Source: Candidatus Magasanikiibacteriota bacterium
GTDB taxonomy: Bacteria > Patescibacteriota > Patescibacteriia > Magasanikbacterales > GWA2-37-8
Assembly (NCBI GenBank): GCA_963840935.1
Contig: CAWJAS010000001.1
Span: forward strand, 706,790 to 770,789
DNA: 64,000 nt
Reading direction: 5' to 3'
Shown here: one piece after another, positions 3,465-26,829 of the stretch
Layout of the letters: each line of letters opens with the position of its first letter
Numbering within the stretch: the first letter of the stretch is position 1
The notes under the pieces: model-generated
The model's input: the letters and a program-made list of their open reading frames with translations, nothing else
Told to the model about the DNA's origin: nothing
Database searches by the model: none
Program-made: the position numbers and the translations under genes

Positions 3465-4824
3465 TTATCTGGAACTGGTCGCCGTGGTACCGGTGGCCGT
3501 ACCGGCAGTTGCGCCGGTTGCTTTTTTATTATCATCAACAGTGGTCACAATAACCAATACCGATAATTTTTCAGATCCAGCGGTTTCAGTGGCGACGGTG
3601 GTGGTGGCTGTTACCAAAACCGTTGAACTGGCAGATGATTGCGCGACTATGGCTGTCGCCTCTCTCAATTGATTTCTGGCCGTGGAAACAACGGAATTTG
3701 ATAAAATAGTTTGCGCCGCGCCAATGGCGTCATCCTGCAATTTATTTATTTCTTTGGATTTTTCTGAAACATATTTTATTAAATCCATCACCCCGGTCAA
3801 ATCATCGTTTTCGATTTTTTCTTTTATTTCCAAAAGTTTTTTATCAAATAATTCAACCGCTTCATTTGTTTTAGCCAATATCTGTTCGATATTTAATTTT
3901 GCCTGAGCGACTATTTCTGATGTTGACGCGTTAGATTTTATTTGTTCTGAGGCCGCTTCAACGGAAACACTAACCACGGTTGCCACACTTTCCACGTTTT
4001 GTTTGGTTTTGGCAACTTCATCAATTGAATTTTTAATAATTTGGTCAATGGCGGAGAGAACTTCGTTTTTATGAACCTTGCCAATTAAATAATTTGAAAC
4101 CAAAACTTCCATCGCTTTTATTGATGTGTCTTTGGAAAGTTCCGTGGCCTCGATAATTTTGTTGGAAATTATTTTTATTTCTTCCGAATTCCGAGGCGTT
4201 TAGTTCGTCTTTTACTTCTTTGAGAAGATTGCTTATTTGTTCGGTATTTTTTTGGACTTCTTTTGCCATTTCCGCTGTGCCATCGGTTTGAGCAGTAATT
4301 AATTTATCCAGCTTATCATTGGCTGAATTTATTTCTTCGGTTAAATCCGCCACTACTGAAGCCACTCTTTTTTGAACCTCCGGGTCGGTGCTCTTTATAA
4401 CTGTTTTGATTTCATCGGCACGACGCTTGGCAAATTCGCTGTGCAATCTGGCTTCTGTCTTTTTTGCTCCGATTATGGCGGCGGTGACCAATTGGGTTTT
4501 TTCTACCACTCGTTTGGCAGGATATAACCAATCACCCGGAAGCGAACGATATGAAGCATCCACTGTGGCAATCCAACCGCTGGTTCCAACCATAGCGACA
4601 ACCAGTAAAACCGCGACCGGACGAACCACGCCAAAAACAAATCTTTTTGGTAAAAAAATTGACATGCCGAGCCAAACATTGTTCCAAGCATTCGGTTTTT
4701 CACTTTTTACGGTATTGGAAATTTGGGATACCAAACGCGCCCGATCGGCCTTGAGCCACTCGGGTCTTGGAGTCACTTCGGACTGCTTAAGATTTTTCAG
4801 TTGTTTGATTATTTCCCGCGACAT
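3465..4824 (-). pseudogene. Anti-sigma-factor-like membrane protein (DUF5667-like coiled-coil ectodomain). It is split into two ORFs (4069..4824 and 3465..4112) by a +1 frameshift near 4195-4215.
   Basis: The N-terminal piece has a cytoplasmic segment, a TM helix (VAVLLVVAMVGTSGWIATV) and a long K/E-rich helix. Its last about 35 residues are junk (FGRNKNNFQQNYRGHGT...). The downstream ORF continues the same coiled-coil in the +1 frame (EEIKIISNKIIEATELSKDTSIKAMEVLV...). It sits directly downstream of the ECF sigma factor, overlapping it by 38 bp. Confidence 0.5.
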
Positions 4825-5380
4825 AATTATTTTGCGTAATTATTTTTAAGCGCTTCATCGCCCGGTGCAGAGTAACTCTGACCGCCACTTTGCCTTTGCC
4901 GACTATTTCGGCAATCTCATCAATGGTCAATTCATCAATATATTTTAAAGTAAGAATTTCTTGGTATTCCTGTTTTAATTTTTTGATTTGCGCGATTATT
5001 TTTTTTGCTTCTTCTGAAGCATGCAGTTTTTCAATTGCCATTCCGCTATCGCTCGGGTCGGACGCCTCGTCCAATTCAGAAAATAAAAGTGGACTCACTC
5101 GGACTGATTTGGCTCGATACATATCAATGATACAATTTCGCGCCACTCGATAAAGCAAGCCGCTAAAACTTTTTAATTCTTTACCTTCAGCCAAGTGATT
5201 CCAAACCTTCAAAAAAACTTCCGACGTAATATCTTCCGCTTCTTCATGTCCGGATACTTTAAAAAAAACGAACCGATAAATTCGTTGTACGTATAAATCA
5301 TAAAGCTCAGCGAAAGCTTCCGGATCCTGTTTTGACTGTAACCTATATAACAGTATTTTTTCCGATATTTTGCCTTTCAT
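4787..5380 (-). CDS. RNA polymerase sigma-70 family ECF sigma factor
   Basis: Region-2 and region-4 signatures are present (YDLYVQRIYRFVFFKVSGHEEAEDITSEVFLKVW, and LTIDEIAEIVGKGKVAVRVTLHRAMKRLK as the HTH). It is 197 aa. Confidence 0.85.
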   Translation of the reverse strand: MKGKISEKILLYRLQSKQDPEAFAELYDLYVQRIYRFVFFKVSGHEEAEDITSEVFLKVWNHLAEGKELKSFSGLLYRVARNCIIDMYRAKSVRVSPLLFSELDEASDPSDSGMAIEKLHASEEAKKIIAQIKKLKQEYQEILTLKYIDELTIDEIAEIVGKGKVAVRVTLHRAMKRLKIITQNNYVAGNNQTTEKS

Positions 5381-16695: not shown

Positions 16696-18510
16696 ATGGC
16701 TTTACTCCACGAAAAAATTATTAAAAAATTGCTTAGAAAAGTCCCCAAAACAGAGGATGATTTTGGCGCTGTTTTGCGTTCCGAATCCCGCGCTGTCAAA
16801 GGCAATCAAGGCACCCCGCGAAAATCGGATTTGCTTCGAGTATATCACGAACTTATTCAGGCGGGCAAGATAAAAAAATCTTCCGCTTTGGAATCTATAT
16901 TAATCAAGCGCGCGGTCAGAACATTGTCCGGCGTGGCGATTATTACGGTTTTAACAAAACCAAATGAGTGCCCGGGAAAGTGCATTTATTGCCCGAATGA
17001 AAAACAAATGCCAAAAAGCTATTTGAGCGATGAGCCGGCGGCGGCCAGAGCATTACTTTTAAATTTTGATCCATTTAAACAAGTAACTGCTCGAATTGAA
17101 GCGCTAAAAAATAACGGTCATCCGACCGATAAAATTGAACTAATTGTTAAAGGGGGCACTTGGAATGCTTATCCCCTGTCTTATCAATATTGGTTTATAT
17201 TGCGATGTTTTGAAGCGGCTAACTCATCATTGTCATTGCGAGCCCCGAAGGGGCGTGGCAATCCCCTGATAATTCAGGAAGCCGTGGGATTGCTTCGTCG
17301 CTCCACGGTCGCTCCTCGCAATGACAAAGTTACGTCTCTTCGCGCCGCTCTTCAAACAGCGCAGAAAAAAAACGAAAAAGCCAAGCACAGAATAATCGGC
17401 TTGACTTTGGAAACCAGACCGGATCACATCAATAAAAAAAATATTATTATAATGCGCGAACTTGGATGCACCAGAATTGAACTTGGCGTCCAAACGACTG
17501 ATGAAAAAATCTTGAAGCTGGTTAGGCGCGGGCACGGAACAGATGAAATAATCCAAGCCACGGAATTATTAAAAAATTACGGTTTTAAAGTTGATTATCA
17601 TTTGATGCCACAACTTCCCGGCTCGACTCCGGCCAAAGACGCGCGTATGCTTGAAGAAATTTTTGACAACCCGAACTACCGACCGGACATGATAAAAATT
17701 TACCCCTGCACGGTCACAAAAAATTCTCCACTTTATCTTTGGGTTAAATCAGGCAAATACAAACCATACACAGACAAAAAATTGATTGAACTTTTGATTA
17801 GTTTCAAAACCAAAATCCCCCGTTATGTCCGCATCTCTCGGCTTATCCGCGATATTCCGGGGCATCATATTGTTGCCGGAAACAAAATGACAAATTTGCG
17901 ACAAGTAATTCAAGCGGAAATGGCGCGTCGCGGACTCAAATGCAATTGCTTGCGTTGCCGTGAAGTCGGACATGCCAACCTCCCTCTCCTTGCCAAGGAG
18001 AGGGCTGGGGTGAGGTCCTCCTTTGAACCAAAACTATTTATTGATAAATATAAAGCTTCCGGCGGTACAGAATACTTTCTAAGCTTTGAAGACACAAAAC
18101 GAAAAATGGTGTTCGCTTTTTGCCGATTAAGAATATGTACGTCTGTCATCCTGAACGCAGTGAAGGATCTTGTTCCTCTTGTCATTCCCGCGTCCCGAAG
18201 GTATCCCTTTGGGAAAGGTGGAATCCAGTCACCGTTAGATCCCCGTTTACACGGGGATGACAACAAAATGGCATTTATTCGCGAGCTCCACACCTACGGA
18301 CAATCCTTATTATTAAAGCAAAAAAACAACAAGGCATTAAAACACATCCAGCACAAAGGGCTCGGCAAGAAACTTGTTAAAGAGGTTGAAAAAATCTGCA
18401 AAAAGAATAGAATAAATAAGCTGGCGGTAATATCGGGCGTTGGCGTGCGCGATTATTATCGCAAACTTGGATATAAATTAGAAAATACTTATTTGATTAA
18501 AAAAATTTAA
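16690..18510 (+). CDS. Elp3-like radical-SAM / GNAT protein (tRNA wobble-uridine modification type). It carries three in-frame palindromic repeat insertions.
   Basis: Radical-SAM cysteine motif (ECPGKCIYCPNE), a central zinc-finger-like region (CNCLRCREVG) and a C-terminal GNAT domain (GLGKKLVKEVEKICKKNRINKLAVISGVGVRDYYRKLGY). Its length of 606 aa is consistent with Elp3 plus about 80 aa of insertions. Confidence 0.7.
   Translation: MHMALLHEKIIKKLLRKVPKTEDDFGAVLRSESRAVKGNQGTPRKSDLLRVYHELIQAGKIKKSSALESILIKRAVRTLSGVAIITVLTKPNECPGKCIYCPNEKQMPKSYLSDEPAAARALLLNFDPFKQVTARIEALKNNGHPTDKIELIVKGGTWNAYPLSYQYWFILRCFEAANSSLSLRAPKGRGNPLIIQEAVGLLRRSTVAPRNDKVTSLRAALQTAQKKNEKAKHRIIGLTLETRPDHINKKNIIIMRELGCTRIELGVQTTDEKILKLVRRGHGTDEIIQATELLKNYGFKVDYHLMPQLPGSTPAKDARMLEEIFDNPNYRPDMIKIYPCTVTKNSPLYLWVKSGKYKPYTDKKLIELLISFKTKIPRYVRISRLIRDIPGHHIVAGNKMTNLRQVIQAEMARRGLKCNCLRCREVGHANLPLLAKERAGVRSSFEPKLFIDKYKASGGTEYFLSFEDTKRKMVFAFCRLRICTSVILNAVKDLVPLVIPASRRYPFGKGGIQSPLDPRLHGDDNKMAFIRELHTYGQSLLLKQKNNKALKHIQHKGLGKKLVKEVEKICKKNRINKLAVISGVGVRDYYRKLGYKLENTYLIKKI
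17230..17327. repeat. MITE-like nested palindromic element inserted in-frame in the Elp3-like CDS (13-bp perfect terminal inverted repeats ttgtcattgcgag / ctcgcaatgacaa)
   Basis: The TIRs enclose the cccc-gaa-gggg and ggcaatccc/gggattgcc sub-hairpins. It is translated as ...SLSLRAPKGRGNPLIIQEAVGLLRRSTVAPRNDKVTSL... Confidence 0.7.
17982..18012. repeat. Short palindromic element (ccctctccttg-N-caaggagaggg, then ctggggtgagg) in-frame in the Elp3-like CDS
   Basis: A perfect 11-bp inverted repeat, translated as HANLPLLAKERAGVRS between the CxCxRC motif and the downstream domain. Confidence 0.65.
18144..18262. repeat. Nested palindromic element (tgtcatcctgaacgcagtgaaggatc ... ccccgtttacacggggatgacaa) in-frame in the GNAT part of the Elp3-like CDS
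   Basis: Terminal inverted repeat ctgtcatcc / ggatgacaa, an internal hairpin ccccgt-ttac-acgggg, and a gtcattcccgcgtcccgaagg module. Translated as VILNAVKDLVPLVIPASRRYPFGKGGIQSPLDPRLHGDD. Confidence 0.65.
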
Positions 18511-18511
18511 T

Positions 18512-19501
18512 ATGCCCGAACACCATCCCTCACCCGAAGCCCGTGACGCCTCCTCCTTTGAATACTGGCTTGATAATGAGGTAAAAAGACAATATATAGA
18601 GCAAGTGACCGCTCTTAACGAGATTGGTCTTTTGGATATCTTGCCCGAAGCCGAAGCCAAGGGCGTGGTTGGTATTGACGGCAAGGAATACCCGGTCCCA
18701 AGCTGGGCGGAGATTAAGGCCGAATTAGAGAAAGACAAAGAAAAATATGATACCAAAAGAAAACAAGGTTTCACCGAACTACAGCTCACCTCTTTTGCTG
18801 TCCCGCTTGAACGATTAACCCACACTTTAGAGAAACAAATCCTCGAACACCACAAACAAGGCAAACTCCTGGCTACTAAGGACAAAGACACTGACCCGGA
18901 TGAACCATTGGAATTAGACACCAACCAACCCCTCTATACATGGGACGGTTGGCTCGACCCGAACGCCCCACAGGGCGAAAGAGGAGCCGATGTCACTGGC
19001 AAGTGCGTTTACTACCCCGAATCCTTTGATAAAAAAAACCACAACGGCCAGACCAAACAACAAATACTCGACAAACAAAACAAGAATAACTCTCCCTTCC
19101 CCGGCTGGAATGTCATCCTCCTGGAAGCCAGCCCGAATATACCGAGAGAGGGCAAAGGCAAAACCCTGAACAACAGAAAACAGTTGGAAGCAGGCAAAGA
19201 ACCACAGCAATATCTCAAAACCCTACAAACCGACCCAACCTACCGGCATGAACAAGGCCTGACTATCGAGGACTGGACAACCCAAATGCTTACTCACCTG
19301 CACAAAACCAACCAGGTGATTGATGATTACCAAGGCAAAGGCAGTATCTGCTATTGTGCCGGCATCTTTAATCCCGCTTTCGGCGACCTGGGCCGCGCCT
19401 GCTGGCGCCGCGACTACCGCCAGGCCTACTTGATCTGGTACGTTCCTGGCTCTCGGTACGACTTCGACGGTCTCCGCTCCGCGGTGGGGATTGGTCCTTG
19501 A
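18512..19501 (+). CDS. DGR target (variable) protein A. The C-terminal about 37 codons are the variable region VR1.
   Basis: 329 aa. It is about 93% identical to the inverted paralog at 24435..25424 except for the C-terminal about 40 aa. Its 3' end matches the template repeat with substitutions only at TR adenines. Confidence 0.8.
   Translation: MPEHHPSPEARDASSFEYWLDNEVKRQYIEQVTALNEIGLLDILPEAEAKGVVGIDGKEYPVPSWAEIKAELEKDKEKYDTKRKQGFTELQLTSFAVPLERLTHTLEKQILEHHKQGKLLATKDKDTDPDEPLELDTNQPLYTWDGWLDPNAPQGERGADVTGKCVYYPESFDKKNHNGQTKQQILDKQNKNNSPFPGWNVILLEASPNIPREGKGKTLNNRKQLEAGKEPQQYLKTLQTDPTYRHEQGLTIEDWTTQMLTHLHKTNQVIDDYQGKGSICYCAGIFNPAFGDLGRACWRRDYRQAYLIWYVPGSRYDFDGLRSAVGIGP
19376..19486 (+). repeat. 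DGR variable repeat VR1
   Basis: A 111-nt match to the TR (24025..24135, opposite strand). About 17 mismatches, every one at a TR adenine. A GC-rich hairpin (cccgccagc-atgag-gctggcggg) lies 40 bp downstream at 19530-19557. Confidence 0.85.
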
Positions 19502-19571
19502 TCTTTGGTTTTTAATTCGTATTATAAAACCCGCCAGCATGAGGCTGGCGGGTTTTAATTTATTCTAATTT

Positions 19572-22500
19572 TTAAAATCTACCGTGCCAAACATTGCCAC
19601 GACCGCCGGAATTGTAGGTCATCTGCGAGTTCAAATTATCACCAGTGCTCAAATCATCATAAATTTTCGTTTCCGGATCGCCCGAACCGTCGTCCAGCGC
19701 GCGCAAGCGCGTCAAAGCAATCGGGTCATTAGTCAGATTATCCGGCATCTTCACCGAACCGCCATATTGGCTGGCGACGGCCAATGTTTTGACCGGTAAA
19801 CCAACAAACATTTTTTTAACTCCGTCTAAAATCGCCGCTACCTGCTCTTCGCTTTCAATACCCGGGGCGTAATAAATACCATTGAGCATCAATGCCGGTT
19901 TTTTATCTTCATCCATGGCGAAACTACCAAAAATAAAACCAAGGTTTTCACTGGATGTTTGTTTAGGCGTATCATACAATGCTTCACCTTGCGGTTTTTC
20001 CATGGAGATAACAAACGATAGCGGGTCGGCGTTAATTGAGGCGACCCAATATTTATTTTCCGTGCCATGTTGAACCACCATATTGTAATTGTTGCTCGAA
20101 AAACAGCAAATTTTGCTGTCGGCAAAGCGCACCATATTCATCAGTTGTTTGGTTTTGTCCATATAGCGCAAACCGACGCGTTGGTGCTTTTTTTCTTCAC
20201 CGCGCGACATCGGCCGAACATAAGTCAATGTGTCTTGAATAGTTTGAAACGGCCCCTGCAAATGACTCTCCAATTCCTGCACCAAAGCCACATCGCTTTC
20301 GCGCAATCGCTCTTCGCCCAGCACCTGCATGCTGATAAAAGTAAAAATGGCGCTCGGTGATTTTTCTGTCAAGGCGATAATTTCTTGTCCGATGGCTTCG
20401 ATTTTTTGGCTTCGCTCACTTGCTGACAAGCCGGCAAACCGGTCTTCCACTTTCATTTCCGACACCATCTGGCGCTCATTTTCCAATTTGGTCAGTTCGG
20501 CCTGAATATTCGCGATTTGTTTTTCTAAACGCGGTTTGTTTTTTTCATCAGCCCTCTCCAGCCCTTCGCGCAAATTGCCCAGGGCTTTCTTTTTGCGCGC
20601 AATTTCACTAACCACGGCTTTGGCTCGCTCATTTCCGCCCCGCAATGCCACCAGCAAATCCTTTTTCATCTTTTTTAAGTCCAGCCGTTTTGCGTCCAGG
20701 CGGGGAATCAATTCTTCTCCGCGGATAACAATTCGCTCGTCGTCAAACACGCTGTCCAAAGTGGCTTCGAGCAACATTTTTTCGCCCAATTTTTTCCAAT
20801 TATCTTTAAGGTCATTTTTGGCGCGGTCACGCAGGTCAGGCCATTCTCTATCAATTTCTGAAATTAACTGTCCGCGATCAGCAAAGGTCTGCGCCGATGA
20901 CATCTGCGTTAAATATTTTTCAGCCATTTCAGTTTTTTCTTGCTGTAAATATTCGCGGTAGAGAGGGAATATCAAAACTACGCCGAGTTCGCCCCGGCCA
21001 AGAGCTCGGCCGATTTCTGCATTGGCATTTTTTATGGCCGCATTTTCACTTACCTCAAAACTCACTTCCTGATAAGCCCGTTCATTTTTTTCACCAAAAT
21101 AATGACCGTCTTCCAGCCGAGAACAAACCTCAGTTGTTTCGGTTTTTTTTAATCCGCCCCGCTCGAGCGCCGAAGCAAACGCATGCATCGGCTCTTTGTG
21201 CGTGCGCAATTTGGCAATCAAATCCAGCATTTCTTTGAATTTGGCAAAACTGTAATTGTTTATTAAATTGAAACGGTCATCCCCACCGTGGAGTAAATAA
21301 TAAATCATGGCCGAGTGTTCGTCGCGATTAAGGGCGGTAATAAGCGAGCGCGAGTCGGTAAATTTTTCAAACTCGGTTTGCTTGGAACGGATATCGGCCA
21401 CGCGTTCGGAAATATTTTTTGTCCGCCAATTCTTATCTTCGTAAATAAATTCCAAAATTTCTTTGCTCGGCATCACGCCGAGCTCTCCGACCACGCTCTG
21501 CAAAACTTCCAGCCGTCGATTTTCACTTTCCATCGTCACCGGCCCTTGTTTGTTTTCCGGCAATTTTTTTCGTTCAGACCGATTGGCTACTCCGCGCTCT
21601 TTCCACCACTCGGCCACATCTTTTGGCAAATAACCTTTGTCGCATAATTTGCCGAATAAATACAAAGCCAGATGATTGTTTAGGCGGGGGTCGCCGGCCA
21701 GGCGCAAAATTATGTCATTGCCTCGCCAGTCGTCAAAATTATCCAAAAATACTTTTATAACGCGAGGCAAATGTCCGGCTTCCATTTTTTCCGCCATATC
21801 GCCTGGCTCGCTTTCGTCGCGAATCAAATCCAACAGCAATTGGCGCGTATCCTCGCCCAGCGTACCGACGGCTTCGCTCAATTGTTTGGTAATAGCGCGT
21901 TCGTCAAATTTTTTGCGCTCCACCGAGACCTTTAATTCTTGATGTAAACGATTACGCACCGCCCGTCGCTGATTTTCTTCCTCTGATTTCTTTTCCACCA
22001 CCGCTTGGTGAAGCAGGGGCGCCAAAGCCAAATCCAATTCGCGCGACACTGCCGGCCGTTTGTCGTCGGGGATCAATGCCAAAAAATCCGCCCGATCTTT
22101 TTCGGGTAAAACCAATGCATAGTCGGCCAAAAGCTGTTTGTCACTGGTCGCTTTTTTAGCGATTTCATTCATGTCAGGCAAAGTGGATTTTTCAACCAAT
22201 TTTTTTTGCAAACCCAAAAGCATGGCATCTGCCAGCAAACTGGACGGAGCAACTTTGGGCACATTTTTACAAGCCGAAAGATATTTATCAGCGGTCTCCA
22301 TTTCCACATCCGGATACACACCGGCAACCAAACTCATTTTTGCCGCCCGCGCCATGGATAAGGCAGCCAAATCGGGAAACAATTCAGCCGTGTCTTCGGC
22401 TTTGGATATTAAAATTTTATACTGTCCTGTTGCCTCTTCGGTAGATAAATCATCTTGACTTCCACCGCCGGCTTCACTGTTAACTTTGGCCAAATCAGCA

Positions 22501-22679
22501 TCATAGCGCTCGCGCATAGCGCCGGTTGACCATGGTTGTTGCAAATTCAGTGCGTTGATGCGTAATTCTTGAGACCGTTTCCGCATTTCCGCGCGAATAT
22601 GTATGTTGCCAAATTCGGCCACAGATTTATTGTTGGCTTCTATGAAGTCCGATGGGTGTTGTCCTTCGCCTTTGCGCAT
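19572..22679 (-). CDS. Large (1,035 aa) hypothetical protein encoded immediately downstream of, and overlapping, the DGR reverse transcriptase. It has no recognisable catalytic motif and no Walker A.
   Basis: Long uninterrupted ORF with island-like GC (about 50%). The N-terminal two-thirds are K/E/R/L-rich and predicted helical. The C-terminal about 230 aa are beta-rich. Its start overlaps the RT stop by 40 nt, consistent with an operon. Confidence 0.65.
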   Translation of the reverse strand: MRKGEGQHPSDFIEANNKSVAEFGNIHIRAEMRKRSQELRINALNLQQPWSTGAMRERYDADLAKVNSEAGGGSQDDLSTEEATGQYKILISKAEDTAELFPDLAALSMARAAKMSLVAGVYPDVEMETADKYLSACKNVPKVAPSSLLADAMLLGLQKKLVEKSTLPDMNEIAKKATSDKQLLADYALVLPEKDRADFLALIPDDKRPAVSRELDLALAPLLHQAVVEKKSEEENQRRAVRNRLHQELKVSVERKKFDERAITKQLSEAVGTLGEDTRQLLLDLIRDESEPGDMAEKMEAGHLPRVIKVFLDNFDDWRGNDIILRLAGDPRLNNHLALYLFGKLCDKGYLPKDVAEWWKERGVANRSERKKLPENKQGPVTMESENRRLEVLQSVVGELGVMPSKEILEFIYEDKNWRTKNISERVADIRSKQTEFEKFTDSRSLITALNRDEHSAMIYYLLHGGDDRFNLINNYSFAKFKEMLDLIAKLRTHKEPMHAFASALERGGLKKTETTEVCSRLEDGHYFGEKNERAYQEVSFEVSENAAIKNANAEIGRALGRGELGVVLIFPLYREYLQQEKTEMAEKYLTQMSSAQTFADRGQLISEIDREWPDLRDRAKNDLKDNWKKLGEKMLLEATLDSVFDDERIVIRGEELIPRLDAKRLDLKKMKKDLLVALRGGNERAKAVVSEIARKKKALGNLREGLERADEKNKPRLEKQIANIQAELTKLENERQMVSEMKVEDRFAGLSASERSQKIEAIGQEIIALTEKSPSAIFTFISMQVLGEERLRESDVALVQELESHLQGPFQTIQDTLTYVRPMSRGEEKKHQRVGLRYMDKTKQLMNMVRFADSKICCFSSNNYNMVVQHGTENKYWVASINADPLSFVISMEKPQGEALYDTPKQTSSENLGFIFGSFAMDEDKKPALMLNGIYYAPGIESEEQVAAILDGVKKMFVGLPVKTLAVASQYGGSVKMPDNLTNDPIALTRLRALDDGSGDPETKIYDDLSTGDNLNSQMTYNSGGRGNVWHGRF

Positions 22680-23647
22680 ATCTTGTTTTTGATTAACCAG
22701 TTATAATTTTTTAGATGTTTAAGATGGTGTTGCTTTGCCAGACCATAATAGCTGGGTACATTCCGCCGATTCAATCGAGATTTTGCTCTGCGCCAAATTT
22801 TAGCTTTGAGCCGTCGGCCAGTAGGATAGATTTCTACGCCCAAAAAATGGATACCCCGCCGCACAGGTAATAATATATCATTTTTACGGTTTATTTCAAG
22901 TCCAAGAGCATTTTTTAAGAATATCAACACTCTCTCTCGTAAATCTTTTGTTCCTATTCTTGTCTGAGTTATTATTATAAAATCATCGCCATAACGAAGA
23001 TAAAATTGCGGTTTTAAAATATGTTTTACAAATCGATCCAATTCATTGAGATAAATATTGGCGAAAATCTGGCTGGTCAAATTGCCGATAGGGATTCCCC
23101 GCTGGTCAGCTTCTCTTTTGTTTTGTCCAGAGTGAATATAACTGCCAATAATTATTTTAAGCAGGTTAGTTGTTTTGGTATCTTTAATACGGCGCGCCAT
23201 AATGCAAAGCAATACATCATGCTTTACGCTGTCAAAAAACTTGGTAATATCCGCCCGCCAGATAAAACTTTGAGAATATTTTTTAAACATTTTTTCCGTT
23301 CGCGCGATTGCCCCAATCAATCCTTTTTCTTTACGGCAAGACCAAGCGTCGTAAATAAAAGTTTTGTCGTAAATCTGCACAAGATATTCATAAACCAAAC
23401 GATGAAAAACCCGATCGCGAACACTGGCGACCGCGATATCACGGCGTTTGTTATCCGTCACCGTAAAATGCTGATACGGACCATGTATATATTGCCCGTT
23501 GTTCAAGTCCGTAAAAAGCCCCCATAAATTGTTTTCCAAAAAATATTGAAACAAATCAAGTTCATTTGTTCTTCTTTTTCCTCGGCGAAATTCAAACCAA
23601 CTTTGCCAAATATTATTTAAACTTAAATCAACGGGCGCTTTAAACAT
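22640..23647 (-). CDS. DGR reverse transcriptase
   Basis: RT motifs including the YxDD box (YLRYGDDFII) and the DGR-RT-characteristic QGIPIGNLTSQIFANIYLNELD segment. It is 335 aa. Confidence 0.9.
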   Translation of the reverse strand: MFKAPVDLSLNNIWQSWFEFRRGKRRTNELDLFQYFLENNLWGLFTDLNNGQYIHGPYQHFTVTDNKRRDIAVASVRDRVFHRLVYEYLVQIYDKTFIYDAWSCRKEKGLIGAIARTEKMFKKYSQSFIWRADITKFFDSVKHDVLLCIMARRIKDTKTTNLLKIIIGSYIHSGQNKREADQRGIPIGNLTSQIFANIYLNELDRFVKHILKPQFYLRYGDDFIIITQTRIGTKDLRERVLIFLKNALGLEINRKNDILLPVRRGIHFLGVEIYPTGRRLKAKIWRRAKSRLNRRNVPSYYGLAKQHHLKHLKNYNWLIKNKICAKAKDNTHRTS

Positions 23648-23675
23648 AATATTCTTAATTGATTCATCTTAATAT

Positions 23676-24020
23676 ATGCTAACATTACCCATAATCAATC
23701 AGGTTTACGAGGTGTATAAAATAATGGCGGACATAAATATCCACACAGAAAAACGCTGGCGTTATTCATTGGGCTCAAGTTTGGAAAACACAATTTTAGA
23801 TTGTATGTCCGAACTGATCATGGCCAAAAATGCGCCAAAACCAATTAAGGCCGGTCATCTTATTCAGGCCGGCGCGCATTTAGAAATATCAATCTTAAAA
23901 TTGCGACTATTTTTGGAGTTAAAAATTGCCAATGAAACAAAAGTTTTTCAGGCGCAAGCCAAAATCCGAGAGATTGGAAGAATGCTCGGTGGCTGGCTGA
24001 AGTCCTTGCAAAATACATAA
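23676..24020 (+). CDS. avd: DGR accessory variability determinant (Avd, four-helix-bundle protein)
   Basis: 114 aa. The C-terminal region IREIGRMLGGWLKSL and the central RYSLGSSLENTILDCMSELIMA pattern resemble Bordetella phage bAvd (LIAEVGRILGSWIARV). It is immediately adjacent to the TR. Confidence 0.7.
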   Translation: MLTLPIINQVYEVYKIMADINIHTEKRWRYSLGSSLENTILDCMSELIMAKNAPKPIKAGHLIQAGAHLEISILKLRLFLELKIANETKVFQAQAKIREIGRMLGGWLKSLQNT

Positions 24021-24024
24021 ACCT

Positions 24025-24135
24025 CACCGCGGAGCGGAGACCGTTGTTGTCGTTCCGATTGCCAGGATCGTTCCTGTTCAAGTTGGCCTGGCGGTTGTCG
24101 CGGTTCCAGTAGGCGTTGCCCAGGTTGCCGAAAGC
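24025..24135 (-). repeat. DGR template repeat (TR). The sense (adenine-bearing) strand is the minus strand, and it is rich in AAC (Asn) codons.
   Basis: The minus-strand reading GCTTTCGGCAACCTGGGCAACGCCTACTGGAACCGCGACAACCGCCAGGCCAACTTGAACAGGAACGATCCTGGCAATCGGAACGACAACAACGGTCTCCGCTCCGCGGTG aligns to both VRs. All differences fall at its adenines. Confidence 0.9.
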
Positions 24136-24434
24136 ATTAGTGATAATATCCGTCCGTAAAATTGAATGACCGCGGTCAATCCAAAATTGCGCCTATTGCG
24201 CTAAACAAACCCGCGCGGGGGTATAGATATTACTCATCACGGTGGGATTTATGTGTAAGGGTTTACGCCACACGATATTTGCTAAAATATTTTAGAAATA
24301 CTTCGCGTTTTTTCGGCGTTTGAACATAGCGGCAGCCCGCCCCAAGGCGGGTGGCTTTTCACCGGGTATGTTATTTTTTTTAAAAACGAAAAACCCCAAA
24401 ACCAAAAGAAAAAAGAAAAAACAAAGGCCAAAGA

Positions 24435-25424
24435 TCAAGCACCCACCCCCACCGCGGAGCGGAGACCGCTGTCGTCGTACCGACTGCCAGGAACGCTCCT
24501 GACCAAGAAGGCCCGGCGGCCGTCGCGGTCCCAGCAGGCGTAGCCCAGGTTGCCGAAAGCGGGATTAAAGGTGCCGGCGAGGAAACAGGCACTGCCTTTG
24601 CCTTGGTAATTATCAATCACCTGGTTGGTTTTGTGCAGGTGAGTAAGCATTTGGGTGGTCCAATCCTCGATGGTCAGGCCTTGTTCATGCCGGTAGGTTG
24701 GGTCGGTTTGTAGGGTTTTGAGATATTGCTGTGGTTCTTTGCCTGCTTCCAACTGTTTTCTGTTGTTCAGGGTTTTGCCTTTGCCCTCTCTCGGTATATT
24801 CGGGCTGGCTTCCAAGAGGATGACATTCCAGCCGGGGAAGGGCGAGTTGTTTTTGTTTTGTTTGTCGATTATTTGTTGTTTGGTCTGGCCGTTATGGTTT
24901 TTCTCGTCAAAGGATTCGGGGTAGTAAACGCACTTGCCGGTAACATCGGCCCCTCTCTCGCCCTGTGGGGCGTTCGGGTCGAGCCATTCGTCCAAGGTGT
25001 AAAGGGGTTGGTTGGTGTCTAATTCCAATGGTTCGTCCGGGTCAGTGTCTTTGTCCTTGGTAGCCAGGAGTTTACCTTGTCTGTGGTGTTCGAGGATTTG
25101 TTTCTCTAAAGTGTGGGTTAATCGTTCAAGCGGGACAGCAAAAGAGGTGAGCTGTAGTTCGGTGAAACCTTGTTTTCTTTTGGTATCATATTTTTCTTTG
25201 TCTTTCTCTAATTCGGCCTTAATCTCCGTCCAGCTTGGGACCGGGTATTCTTTGCCGTCAATGCCAACCACGCCCTTGGCTTCGGCTTCGGGTAAGATAT
25301 CCAAAAGACCAATCTCGTTAAGAGCGGTCACTTGCTCTATGTATTGTCTTTTTACCTCATTCTCCAGCCAGTATTCAAAGGAGGAGGCGTCACGGGCTTC
25401 GGGTGAGGGGCGGTGTTCGGGCAT
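24435..25424 (-). CDS. DGR target (variable) protein B, an inverted paralog of protein A. Its C-terminus is VR2.
   Basis: 329 aa, near-identical to protein A until the last about 40 residues. Confidence 0.8.
   Translation of the reverse strand: MPEHRPSPEARDASSFEYWLENEVKRQYIEQVTALNEIGLLDILPEAEAKGVVGIDGKEYPVPSWTEIKAELEKDKEKYDTKRKQGFTELQLTSFAVPLERLTHTLEKQILEHHRQGKLLATKDKDTDPDEPLELDTNQPLYTLDEWLDPNAPQGERGADVTGKCVYYPESFDEKNHNGQTKQQIIDKQNKNNSPFPGWNVILLEASPNIPREGKGKTLNNRKQLEAGKEPQQYLKTLQTDPTYRHEQGLTIEDWTTQMLTHLHKTNQVIDNYQGKGSACFLAGTFNPAFGNLGYACWDRDGRRAFLVRSVPGSRYDDSGLRSAVGVGA
24450..24560 (-). repeat. DGR variable repeat VR2
   Basis: A 111-nt match to the TR with about 15 mismatches, all at TR adenines and at positions different from VR1. 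A downstream hairpin gcccgcc-ccaa-ggcgggt lies at 24347-24368. Confidence 0.85.
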
Positions 25425-25590
25425 ATTAAATTATAAAATAAGTATGTCGTCGAATTGACAAAAGTATGAATAAATAATAGCAAATATTATATACCATGTC
25501 CAACAAACGCGCAGACAAATAAATTTATCGAAAAATTGACAAAAAATACATAAAAGCTGATAATAAGGTAATTGAAAAAATAAAAAATTT

Positions 25591-26829
25591 ATGCACAAAC
25601 AAAAACTTGAACAATTTGATACGGAAATTTTCTCGGCCATTGCCAAAGAAAAAGCCCGCGAGGAAAACGGACTGGAAATGATTCCATCGGAAAACTTTGT
25701 TTCCACCGCGGTTTTGGAAGCCCTGGGTTCGATTTTGACAAACAAATATTCGGAAGGATACCCGGGCAAACGCTATTATGGCGGATGCGAATATATTGAT
25801 GAAATAGAAACGCTCGCAATTGAACGCGCCAAACAATTATTCGGAGCCGAACATGTTAATGTTCAACCGCTTTCCGGCGCGCCGGCCAATATTGCCGTGT
25901 ATTTTGCTTTGCTTGAACCGGGCGACACTATTCTTGGCATGGATTTGGCTCATGGCGGGCATCTCACTCACGGCCATCCTGTCACCTACATGGCAAAATT
26001 GTATAATTTTATTCGCTATGGCACAGGTGCCGACGGACTTATTAATTATGAAGAGCTGCGTCAAACCGCCCTTGGACACAAACCAAAAATTATTCTGGCT
26101 GGCTACAGCGCCTATTCGCGTCTGATTGATTGGAAAAAAATAAAAAATATTGCCGATGAAGTGGGCGCAATCACCATGGCGGACATTGCTCACATTGCCG
26201 GACTTATCGCCGGAGGTGTAATGGAAAATCCTGTTCCGATTTTTGATGTTGTCACCACCACAACGCACAAAACTTTGCGCGGACCCAGAGGCGGAATGAT
26301 AATGTGCAAAAAACAATTCGCCAAAGCGATTGATAAATCAGTTTTCCCGGGATTCCAAGGCGGACCGCATGAAAATAATATCGCCGCTAAAGCAATTTCT
26401 TTTAAAGAAGCGCTGGAACCGGAATTCAAAGAATACGCAAAACAAATTTTAAAAAACGCGAAGGTTTTGGAAGAAGAATTCAAAAAACGAGATTACAATA
26501 TTTGTTTTGGCGGAACTGATAACCATCTTTTGCTGATTGATTTGACAAACAAAAATATTACCGGCAAGGAAGCGCAAATTGCTTTGGACAAAGCCGGAAT
26601 TACAGTTAATAAAAATATGGTGCCAAATGACCCGCGCTCGCCCATGGACCCGTCAGGTATTCGCCTTGGCACACCGGCCCTAACCACTCGCGGGATGAAA
26701 GAAGATGAAATGCGCAAAATTGCCGAATGGATTGATACGGCGATAAAAAATTACCAAAACGATGATGAACTTCAAAAAATAAAAAATGAGGTCATTAACC
26801 TCACAAAACAATTCCCACTTTACTATTAA
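25591..26829 (+). CDS. glyA: Serine hydroxymethyltransferase
   Basis: 412 aa. Conserved segments are [35 protein letters not shown], the PLP-binding [14 protein letters not shown] and DLAHIAGL. Confidence 0.92.

Follow-up and report, generated by a model that had tools for sequence, protein, structure and literature searches.

Candidatus Magasanikiibacteriota contig CAWJAS010000001.1 contains a DGR in which the avd gene lies between TR and RT and is encoded on the strand opposite to both. We analysed a stretch of 64,000 nucleotides around it, hereafter the window. The arrangement raises the question of where the RNA that serves this RT begins and ends, as a transcript running from TR to RT would have to pass through avd in antisense. 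Mechanistic understanding of a DGR RNA exists only for the Bordetella phage, where the scaffold is placed between TR and RT. All features discussed below are listed in Table 1.

Identity and gene order of the cassette

The first-pass annotation had assigned the TR sense to the minus strand, the strand of the RT and of target B, and the adenine bookkeeping agrees. Read on the minus strand, the TR contains 28 A per 111 nt, and all 34 TR/VR mismatches (16 + 18) fall at adenines, with 0 at other bases. Since every mismatch is at a minus-strand adenine, the TR sense is minus, as for the RT; the annotation had also considered a pattern favouring the opposite strand, and what was found supports the minus strand only. 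An independent repeat search recovered a direct repeat (24022-24135 / 24447-24560, 85%) and an inverted pair (19376-19492 / 24019-24135) that corresponds to VR_A/TR. As in an IMH/IMH* pair, the GC-rich GGTCTCCGCTCCGCGGTG is the same in TR, VR_A and VR_B; it is followed by AGG in TR and by GGG in both VRs, with divergence beyond. Both VRs lie at the 3' end of a coding target with an intact frame, occupying the last ~40 codons of two intact 329-aa ORFs.

The two target genes form a 1010-nt inverted repeat (93%). Their proteins share 303 of 329 residues, and 18 of the 26 differences are at residue 272 or later. No Pfam or NCBIfam domain was matched by target B, and a profile search gave no Pfam match for the VR domain. 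A GC-rich inverted repeat just 3' of the IMH is optional and present in 34% of DGRs (Wu et al. 2018, PMC5758913). In the window, a GC hairpin with a T-run (19528-19557) resembling a bidirectional terminator is found ~40 nt past VR_A, and the first GC hairpin past VR_B is helix P2 of the scaffold described below, ~100 nt downstream.

DGR RTs carry an [I/L]GxxxSQ motif, and we take the IGNLTSQ of the RT translation to fit it. In a PDB sequence search the best solved relative of the RT was 8ub7_A (E 1.5e-33, residues 11-292), while chains named retron-type RT scored behind it (E 1.7e-20). Entries 8ub7-8ube contain a 328-aa RT, which we presume from the entry series and the length to be the BPP-1 bRT. 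Judged by these sequence matches, the RT next to the TR belongs to the DGR clade.

The avd gene had been annotated on the plus strand with its end 4 bp from the TR. Its product matched Pfam bAvd (PF22296) with 44.1 bits (cut-off 40) over residues 8-110, and NCBIfam DivGenRetAVD (NF033474) over the full length at 9.8e-15, which is under that model's 80-bit cut-off; the PDB sequence search gave no solved-structure match. An ORF of ~114 aa is kept in 41 homologues, and conservation at codon positions 1, 2 and 3 (0.57-0.84, 0.73-0.95 and 0.37-0.51) is of the coding type. Avd is a real plus-strand gene, and the proviso that it might in fact be encoded on the minus strand falls away with the bAvd match and the coding-type conservation of the plus-strand ORF. 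With its stop codon the gene reaches 24020, which leaves 4 nt to the TR core and 1 nt to the extended TR homology. The 73-aa minus-strand ORF had been dismissed as merely the TR read in frame, and rightly so: ORF 23860-24081 opens with the TR in the VR frame (MNRNDPGNRNDNNGLRSAV...), found no match in family searches and is an artefact.

The cassette runs TR (24135 to 24025, minus), avd (23676-24020, plus) and RT (23647 to 22640, minus), with no other accessory gene between and with avd opposite both TR and RT. Comparison with curated architectures, which the annotation had proposed, places it in Architecture B3, 'TR-(avd)-RT', to which 90% of the CPR DGRs listed by Wu et al. (2018, NAR 46:11, PMC5758913) belong. 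Order and orientation and the VR-bearing target upstream on the TR strand are those of B3, whose hosts are typically, though not by definition, CPR / Patescibacteria. The gene order is no different; what is extra here is a second, inverted target gene 4.5 kb from the cassette and, behind the RT, a 1035-aa ORF specific to the subgroup. The label 'non-canonical' therefore holds relative to the Bordetella phage prototype only, since B3 is catalogued and avd is inverted in 44 of 48 related CPR loci. The 48 RT relatives come nearly all from Patescibacteria MAGs, with three records labelled Gammaproteobacteria. TR and RT share a strand in 31 loci, where the gap between the TR and the avd stop is usually 3-4 nt. 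Chromosomal housekeeping genes flank the cassette, and the locus is an intact, chromosomal and apparently active DGR.

The gene order itself is thus not new but the standard CPR layout, and alone it carries little weight. RNA structure, promoters and spacers of B3 are not discussed by Wu et al. (2018, PMC5758913), and DGRs account for ~80% of the reverse transcriptases of CPR bacteria (PMC8632793). It is the scaffold result below that may matter.

Table 1. Positions of the DGR features in the window
Feature	Position	Strand	Basis or remark
Target gene A	18512-19501	plus	Inverted paralogue of B; carries VR_A
VR_A of target A	19376-19486		18 mismatches to TR, all at TR adenines
DGR RT, 335 aa	22640-23647	minus	RVT_1, 4e-18
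Sigma-70-like TTGATT-N16-TATATT	23671-23698	minus	9/12 consensus positions; overlaps avd start
avd, 114 aa	23676-24020	plus	Inverted relative to TR and RT; Pfam bAvd, coding-type conservation
Spurious 73-aa ORF	23860-24081	minus	TR in frame, then antisense avd; no family match
D strand	24015-24031	minus	TR 3' end and antisense avd stop codon; predicted to pair with U
TR (core)	24025-24135	minus (sense)	Gapless alignment to both VRs; repeat search
Structured RNA scaffold, ~225 nt	24364 to 24139	minus	Covariation, covariance model
Scaffold P1	24364-24360 / 24335-24330	minus	
Scaffold P2 hairpin	24351-24336	minus	
Scaffold mid domain	24318-24266	minus	
U strand of scaffold	24266-24255 or 24254-24238	minus	Predicted to pair with D
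Scaffold long-range helix	24236-24225 with 24151-24141	minus	
Scaffold hairpins	24221-24210, 24201-24189, 24184-24162	minus	
Presumed promoter of the TR-containing RNA	24365-24405	minus	Weak in the window; signal from relatives
Target gene B, 329 aa	24435-25424	minus	ORF; VR_B at 3' end
VR_B of target B	24450-24560	minus	16 mismatches to TR, all at TR adenines

A structured RNA 5' of the TR

The scaffold is held in the ~300-nt spacer between VR_B and TR; in 31 loci the VR-TR spacer measures 215-371 nt. In scaffold alignment A2, 94.5% of the cells were paired, compared with 36-51% in slid controls, and 209 cells showed double changes, compared with 28-49. The observed values were reached by 0 of 500 shuffles. 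A covariance model built from the 3' domain of the scaffold only (R1) matched the window at 24139-24264 on the minus strand (48 bits, E 2e-8), and exactly one TR-sense copy per cassette was found in 42 of 48 genome loci as well as in the window. The scaffold was further recovered, in TR sense, in 45 metagenome loci that had been fetched by the RNA pattern alone and were confirmed by R1; the other three of the 48 pattern matches (L049, L080 and L081) were rejected by R1 as chance. Where enough downstream sequence was available, avd followed on the opposite strand ~180 nt downstream in 35 of 36 metagenome loci. The RNA pattern search of viral contigs gave no match.

The strand of this RNA is indicated by its local helices, which favour the TR sense (alifold -28.2 versus -13.6 kcal/mol) and contain 141 G.U against 12 A.C on the TR-sense strand. 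The long-range helix of the scaffold (11 bp, one bulged base) stops 1-16 nt short of the TR (median gap 6 nt). The single-sequence fold of the window RNA was no more stable than its shuffles (z -0.70), and the case for the scaffold comes from the comparison between loci. The window subgroup is without the A-rich stretch and the UGCG loop found in most relatives.

We also considered the scaffold as a 3' UTR of the target or as an IMH-associated hairpin, and rejected both: it tracks the TR in L004, whose VR lies elsewhere, and according to R1 none follows target A. Permissive Rfam 15 scans of 23990-24420 and 18000-26000 returned chance-level matches only, and at the gathering score nothing was reported on the scaffold in 13 related loci. 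No description of this RNA family was found in the DGR literature covered, Paul et al. 2017 being outside that coverage. Judged from the aligned loci, the spacer is neither junk nor just a promoter; it encodes a multi-helix RNA that is conserved and strongly covarying.

Promoters, the TR 3' end and alternative readings

Separate promoters for TR and RT had been suggested, that of the TR within 24136-24330 and that of the RT within 23648-23700. The former site turned out to be the body of the structured RNA (24139-24364), and the promoter signal is instead upstream of 24364. Among relatives, a -10 box (TAnnnT) is sharply positioned, with its end 6-10 nt ahead of the scaffold start in 51 of 63 distinct loci, and a T-rich block is present at -38..-29 upstream of the scaffold. 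The -10 box of the window itself is poor (TAACAT, 3 nt upstream of the scaffold), and a sigma-70 consensus scan found no match upstream of the scaffold. On the RT side, TTGATT-N16-TATATT (23698-23671) is situated 24 nt upstream of the RT start and fits the suggested RT promoter, as a consensus match only; relatives have a TATAAT within avd, ~28 nt before the RT start. The idea of separate promoters hence survives in this consensus match and in the TR-side box of the relatives, while the location given for the TR promoter does not.

A single long transcript could instead extend from TR to RT through antisense avd and serve also as the RT mRNA, in which case mutual interference with the avd mRNA would amount to antisense regulation of avd. 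No intrinsic terminator was predicted on the minus strand after TR/D, and in 36 of 39 relatives the ORFs of RT and avd share 17-20 nt in a head-to-head overlap, leaving no intergenic space for promoters. TR and RT are, moreover, co-transcribed in BPP-1 and canonical DGRs. However, the promoter-like boxes just before the RT start, in the window as well as in the relatives, speak against such a transcript, and so do the unconstrained synonymous sites of avd. Co-transcription is also not required, because TR and RT may even sit on different strands (Wu et al. 2018, PMC5758913). We regard the long transcript as rather unlikely. It could hold together with the scaffold model, from which it departs only in the end point of the RNA. 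As for the claim that a TR-RT transcript would be antisense to avd, the TR transcript does overlap avd, but the conserved pairing needs only ~6-20 nt of this overlap.

This pairing joins the scaffold strand U, in a covarying duplex of ~20 bp, to strand D, which covers the last ~9 nt of the TR and the next ~6-20 nt. In the minimum-free-energy fold of the window, 24254-24238 is paired with 24031-24015. We tested U:D by comparing cognate with permuted duplex energies. In the first set the cognate energy was -23.1 kcal/mol against -16.7 ± 0.7 kcal/mol (z -9.1; 0 of 20000 permutations), and in an independent second set -21.3 against -15.4 ± 0.66 kcal/mol (z -8.9). RNAalifold applied to scaffold, TR and tail did not recover this duplex with its 250-nt range. 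With the 11-bp helix before its start and the U:D duplex over its end, the TR is bracketed. A-type TR/VR mismatches occur within the predicted D in 10 of 29 loci, which fits a primer:template duplex poorly unless they are IMH/IMH* differences.

The complementarity of U and D is strand-symmetric (-20.0 versus -19.5 kcal/mol, p 0.33), and in a less restricted analysis the avd strand was even slightly better. Taken alone, U:D could therefore be an inverted repeat at the DNA level or a part of the avd mRNA, in which a long-range stem might, for instance, terminate or stabilise the convergent transcript; the avd stop codon within D would suit such a role. The helices nested inside U:D are, however, clearly specific to the TR sense, and D spans the TR 3' end, which is the obligatory start of the cDNA. 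D also keeps with the TR where avd is farther off: TR/D and avd are ~20-35 nt apart in six loci, so D is not tied to avd. An origin of U:D outside the TR transcript thus appears improbable to us.

If a functional Sp-like RNA were located 3' of the TR as in BPP-1, it would be antisense in the 3' part of avd, and the upstream element would have another role, for example as a leader or regulator. Handa et al. reported that 207 of 278 DGRs have putative stem-loops for Avd binding immediately 3' of the TR; their survey of Avd-containing DGRs, CPR included, used single-sequence folds and was limited to the 40 nt before and the 100 nt after each TR. In B3, the downstream stretch so surveyed is antisense avd, and the covarying scaffold lies 5-230 nt upstream. 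RNAalifold, run on the end of the TR together with the following 100 nt of antisense avd, gave 0 conserved pairs in 27 loci. Synonymous-site conservation of avd is flat (0.90-1.34) with no strong constraint, and the small rise in its last 9-15 codons (1.27-1.32), which might be counted in favour of a downstream element, is explained by the D strand. As D is not tied to avd and all covariation is in the upstream element, we consider a 3' Sp highly improbable; in these alignments the antisense avd further 3' of D shows no conserved structure. Finally, an annotation error that hides a canonical cassette, with avd on the minus strand or the TR sense on the plus strand, found no support and is negligible in view of the adenine mismatches (34/34), the plus-strand ORF with its bAvd and DivGenRetAVD matches and coding-type conservation in 41 homologues, and the minus-strand ORF without any family match.

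A scaffold-TR RNA and its relation to known systems

A conserved non-coding RNA gene on the RT strand has the TR as its 3' part, and we consider it probable that the locus combines the B3 architecture with a TR residing in such a scaffold-plus-TR RNA gene. A promoter of its own, immediately before the scaffold, would drive this RNA, and avd and RT would form a divergent pair with one promoter each; the ends of the scaffold-TR transcript are inferred. The scaffold may do the job of the BPP-1 Sp, namely binding RT-Avd, positioning the TR 3' end for priming and stopping cDNA synthesis at the TR 5' end. The U segment would reach across ~230 nt to the TR 3' end and set the cDNA start, and the 11-bp helix abutting the TR 5' end would set the cDNA stop. 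Avd would then be free to occupy the TR-RT interval in either orientation, because nothing functional would be needed there.

By analogy with BPP-1, we tentatively propose that B3 (CPR) DGRs might use a circularly permuted DGR RNA with the Sp counterpart 5' of the TR, a possibility we hold open to about as much doubt as belief, with doubt slightly ahead. If this is true, the scaffold would be the RNA component still missing from most CPR DGRs and would define a minimal RNA (~350 nt) for in vitro reconstitution of a CPR DGR. It would also provide an RNA marker for locating TRs, including TR modules without a nearby RT, and a natural test of which DGR priming features depend on RNA connectivity.

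A retron msr-msd is a structured ncRNA that adjoins an RT gene, with cDNA primed from an internal 2'-OH. The likeness to the present locus would be that of a self-contained, promoter-driven RNA carrying both scaffold and template for its own RT. Unlike in a retron, the template here is a TR with adenine-specific VR mismatches, Avd is present, and the RT is closest to 8ub7_A, with retron-type chains behind it.

The RT-10 motif (Weinberg et al. 2017) is in the same TR-brt interval as RF03022 Phage_DGR. RF03022 scored 104.7 bits on BPP-1, and in the same search it had no match in the window (E<=10 in 23990-24420, E<=1 in 18000-26000); R1 in turn scored <=5 bits on BPP-1. The locus is thus not a member of Phage_DGR, and its TR-RT interval is filled by avd. 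Since the scaffold has no sequence or structure similarity to Phage_DGR, the analogy with Sp is positional only.

Within this limit, the two RNAs can be aligned by position. The BPP-1 DGR RNA is ordered avd 3' end, TR and Sp (Handa et al. 2018, PMC6182149; bioRxiv 10.1101/2023.10.23.563531), with its scaffold between TR and RT, whereas the scaffold here is 5' of the TR. In both, the TR is bracketed by RNA duplexes. The duplex at the TR 3' end is formed by TR117-129 with Sp47-56 in BPP-1 (10 bp) and, as predicted, by U:D here (~20 bp). The other duplex, located a few nt 5' of the TR in each case, has 11 bp and one unpaired base; in BPP-1 it is formed by avd369-379 with Sp59-70. The linker between the two duplexes on the scaffold strand is 2 nt in BPP-1 and ~4 nt here. 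A stem-loop comes next in the BPP-1-like order, followed in most relatives by an adenosine-rich stretch and further hairpins, among them a tetraloop hairpin of ~9-10 bp as in BPP-1. The order of elements here is that of BPP-1 once the RNA is circularly permuted.

DGR components and gene order

The diversity-generating retroelement (DGR) in the window is complete and passed all the defining DGR tests that were run. As listed in the table, the template repeat (TR) was aligned to the variable repeats of both target genes (VR_A and VR_B), and the same TR/VR pairs were recovered independently by a repeat search. Read on the minus strand, the 111-nt TR contains 28 adenines, and all mismatches with VR_B (16/16) and VR_A (18/18) fall at these adenines, with none at other bases. 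These 34 mismatches verified the minus strand as the TR sense strand, the same as for the reverse transcriptase (RT) and target B, as the first-pass annotation had stated. Among solved structures, the best relative of the RT is a 328-aa RT (entries 8ub7-8ube, E 1.5e-33). The gene of the accessory protein Avd indeed lies between TR and RT on the opposite strand: in addition to its family matches, its ~114-aa ORF is kept in 41 homologues with coding-type conservation, lowest at third codon positions. The 73-aa ORF, previously described as the TR read in frame, proved to be so and gave no family match. An avd gene on the minus strand and an A-to-N pattern supporting the opposite TR strand were both looked for and neither was observed; all factual statements of that annotation hold.

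Features of the DGR cassette and its RNA in the window
Feature	Position	Strand	Remarks
TR core	24025-24135	sense minus	gapless alignment to VR_A and VR_B
VR_B	24450-24560	minus	3' end of target B
Target B	24435-25424	minus	
VR_A	19376-19486	plus	3' end of target A
Target A	18512-19501	plus	
RT	22640-23647	minus	RVT_1 match; IGNLTSQ present
avd	23676-24020	plus	Pfam bAvd above cut-off; NCBIfam DivGenRetAVD end to end
73-aa ORF	23860-24081	minus	in-frame TR running into antisense avd
1035-aa ORF	19572-22679	minus	start 40 nt inside RT gene 3' end
Inverted repeat of targets	18504-19513 / 24423-25432		1010 nt, 93%; whole cassette between
GC-rich hairpin	19528-19557		perfect; AAAACCCGCCAGC-ATGAG-GCTGGCGGGTTTT; A-run and T-run on flanks
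Scaffold RNA	24364->24139	minus	5' of TR
R1 match	24139-24264		48 bits, E 2e-8
Long-range helix	24236-24225 with 24151-24141		
U:D pairing, minimum-free-energy fold	24254-24238 with 24031-24015		
Candidate RT promoter	23698-23671		TTGATT-N16-TATATT
RT/avd gap	23648-23675		28 nt

The neighbours of the cassette are housekeeping genes (SHMT, pyruvate kinase, NrdR, FtsZ and an ELP3-like radical SAM protein), and the cassette is therefore chromosomal. The two target proteins, whose genes form the inverted repeat, are identical at 303 of 329 residues; the VR-encoded tail (residues >=272) accounts for 18 of the 26 differences. The 1035-aa ORF matched no Pfam or NCBIfam family; it was found at the equivalent position (51-85% identity) only in the closest relatives of the window, L001, L011, L013 and L014, and is possibly an accessory or cargo gene particular to this subgroup. 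In L011 and L013 it is followed by a second, inverted target gene. The GC-rich hairpin, ~40 nt past VR_A between the convergent target A and 1035-aa ORF, looks like a bidirectional terminator.

The gene order had been called non-canonical, which is true against the Bordetella phage prototype (mtd/VR - avd - TR - brt on a single strand, database record) but not otherwise. By definition the cassette is Architecture B3, 'TR-(avd)-RT' with parentheses denoting the reverse strand (Wu et al. 2018, PMC5758913). In DGRs, co-transcription of TR and RT is not required (Wu et al. 2018). The layout is thus of a known kind, already catalogued and typical of the lineage. An RT scan of one genome per species gave 48 loci. 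Almost all come from Patescibacteria MAGs, and in 44 the RT is immediately preceded by an Avd homologue on the opposite strand. In 31 loci a TR was located on the RT strand by its A-specific mismatches; the distance from its end to the avd stop is usually 3-4 nt, and the VR lies ~300 nt further upstream.

Several loci deviate from this scheme. In the Roizmanbacteria MAG locus L020 (5001-6370), whose RT is the most divergent of the relatives (39% identity), avd lies downstream of the RT on the same strand and there is no match to R1, the covariance model of the RNA 3' domain described below; it is a different architecture within CPR. L028 has a tandem duplication of the TR-(avd) module (1919-2373 and 4563-5017, ~2.6 kb apart); both TRs are equally similar to both VRs (85.8% over 113 nt, 16/16 mismatches at adenines), and each Avd copy gives the same match to that of the window (68% identity). 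A Gracilibacteria locus (L005:6010-6073, minus strand) holds a match to the Rfam DUF3800-IX RNA just past the RT gene (49.3 bits, above gathering). CPR-type cassettes also occur in L001, L003 and L014, MAG records titled 'uncultured Gammaproteobacteria bacterium', probably through a binning or labelling error.

A structured RNA upstream of the TR

The interval proposed in the first-pass annotation as a TR promoter region (24136-24330) is instead a conserved structured RNA, referred to here as the scaffold. The VR-to-TR distance is 215-371 nt in the 31 loci, and the intervening sequences can be aligned. Twenty-nine sequences, aligned from a conserved CGGUGAAUAG as far as the TR, fold into two 5' helices (P1 and P2) followed by a long-range helix closing a three-hairpin junction, with a conserved single-stranded block GCAAACCAAUGC and a conserved hairpin bearing a GGUUGCGAC tetraloop. 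Standard pairs occupy 94.5% of the alignment cells, compared with 36-51% when partners were slid by 1-3 columns, and double-change cells number 209 compared with 28-49; none of 500 shuffles reached the observed values. Covariation was also strong in the 3' domain assessed alone. RNAalifold energies favour the TR/RT-sense over the opposite orientation (-28.2 vs -13.6 kcal/mol; 3' domain only, -22.5 vs -8.4 kcal/mol), and G.U cells exceed A.C cells (141 vs 12). Hence, the scaffold is an RNA of the TR/RT-sense strand.

R1 found a single copy in 42 of the 48 loci, always TR-sense and upstream of the TR. A DNA pattern derived from the RNA alone gave no match in viral contigs and matched 48 metagenome contigs, 45 of which were confirmed by R1; where enough downstream sequence was available, avd followed on the opposite strand ~180 nt downstream, and then the RT, in 35 of 36 loci. 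L004 has its VR on the other strand at a distance of ~1.1 kb, and the whole element including P1/P2 still precedes the TR; after target A, R1 detected no copy. Thus, the element travels with the TR and not with the target gene.

In three rearranged cassettes the scaffold 3' domain abuts the RT (L037:4915-5017, L050:1580-1690) or a truncated avd (L009:4736-4822) with no recognisable TR between. Two metagenome loci (L060:~1370-1700, L078:~1400-1700) contain the scaffold, a TR-like AAC-rich repeat and the tail D described below, with no avd or RT found within several kb downstream; they are orphan TR-RNA modules that act in trans or else what is left after deletions.

Helices bracketing the TR and probable transcription units

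The TR is flanked by two helices, and the comparison among loci establishes both these helices and the scaffold. The long-range helix comprises 3 + 8 bp with one bulged G, and its 3' strand ends 1-16 nt (median 6) upstream of the TR/VR homology. The scaffold segment just 5' of its 5' strand (U) is complementary to D, which consists of the last ~9 nt of TR homology and the next ~6-20 nt and in most loci covers the antisense avd stop and last codons. U/D sequences vary widely among loci (AGCACAU/AUGUGCU, AGUAAAUAACCU/AGGUUAUUUACU, AUAGACCCUUA/UAAGGGUCUAU and others), and the mean energy of cognate pairs is -23.1 kcal/mol compared with -16.7 +/- 0.7 for permuted pairs (z -9.1; 0/20000). A similar difference was obtained in the independent metagenome set (-21.3 vs -15.4 +/- 0.66; z -8.9). 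The minimum-free-energy fold of window 24364->24005 contains the U:D pairing, the long-range helix and the hairpins.

The TR transcript does run antisense to avd, as noted previously, but the conserved pairing requires only the last few avd codons. No consensus pair was obtained for the final 60 nt of the TR together with 100 nt of antisense avd, and avd synonymous-site conservation is flat (0.90-1.34) with a small rise only in the last codons, at D.

The layout of transcription units was inferred as follows. Of 63 distinct loci, 51 carry a TAnnnT hexamer that ends 6-10 nt upstream of the P1 start (8-9 nt in 43). There is also a T-rich block at -38 to -29, and several loci have a GC hairpin plus T-run between the target stop and the box. 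These signals point to a promoter starting the RNA at the scaffold; the counterpart of the earlier promoter proposal would lie just upstream of the scaffold in the relatives. In the window the -10 candidate is weak (TAACAT, 3 nt upstream), and a consensus promoter scan upstream of the scaffold gave no match. Read-through from target B into the TR RNA is therefore possible there. At its other end, the modelled RNA must extend to 24015 or beyond; terminator prediction found none after that point, and the RNA may continue to the RT.

For the RT promoter suggested within 23648-23700, the window offers a consensus match as a candidate. In 36 of 39 relatives (L005-L048, e.g. L029:4986-5005) the head-to-head overlap of RT and avd, 17-20 nt long, means that each promoter must sit inside the other gene. 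TATAAT is present ~28 nt upstream of the RT start within avd, and TAAACT 7 nt upstream of the avd start within RT. The window, with its short gap, and L011 (65 nt) are exceptions.

Comparison with the BPP-1 DGR RNA

The upstream scaffold matched no Rfam 15 family (positive control: RF03022 on BPP-1, 104.7 bits), and no description was found in the literature searched, which did not include Paul et al. 2017. RNA structure is not mentioned by Wu et al. 2018 (PMC5758913), and the survey of Handa et al. was confined to the stretch from 40 nt upstream to 100 nt downstream of the individual TRs. Beyond gene order, the conserved scaffold RNA is what would be new, while an earlier description is possible. 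It probably explains how the B3-type architecture works and gives a directly testable model.

In Bordetella phage BPP-1 the RNA begins with stop strand A (avd 369-379), ~8 nt and the TR, whose residues 117-129 pair with a primer strand in Sp, the RNA between TR and RT (Handa et al., PMC6182149, 10.1101/2023.10.23.563531). Sp starts with an Avd-binding stem-loop, primer strand 47-56, 2 nt and stop strand B 59-70, which forms an 11-bp helix with one unpaired base; a short stem-loop, A80/A81, the thumb ring and a bRT-binding stem-loop follow (Handa et al.). The CPR RNA runs from P1/P2 through a mid domain to U, which pairs with the TR 3' end, ~4 nt, and the helix 5' strand (11 bp, one bulged base); then come hairpin b, an A-rich stretch in most relatives, GCAAACCAAUGC, the tetraloop hairpin (~9-10 bp), the helix 3' strand, ~6 nt, the TR and D.

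Under this analogy the 3'-most paired nucleotides of U would face the TR nucleotides copied first, with the right polarity for priming. Among 29 loci, 10 have their last A-type TR/VR mismatch directly adjacent to D on its 5' side. Against the analogy, A-type mismatches fall within the predicted D in 10 loci, the U:D duplex shows no strand asymmetry, the window subgroup lacks the A-rich stretch and UGCG loop, and covariance models revealed no similarity to Rfam Phage_DGR (RF03022) in either direction, the window locus falling outside that family. By element order, the CPR DGR RNA can be read as a circular permutation of that of BPP-1, opened between TR and Sp and closed between the Sp end and stop strand A; that the upstream scaffold also acts as a permuted Sp is a hypothesis for which we regard the chances as about evenly balanced.
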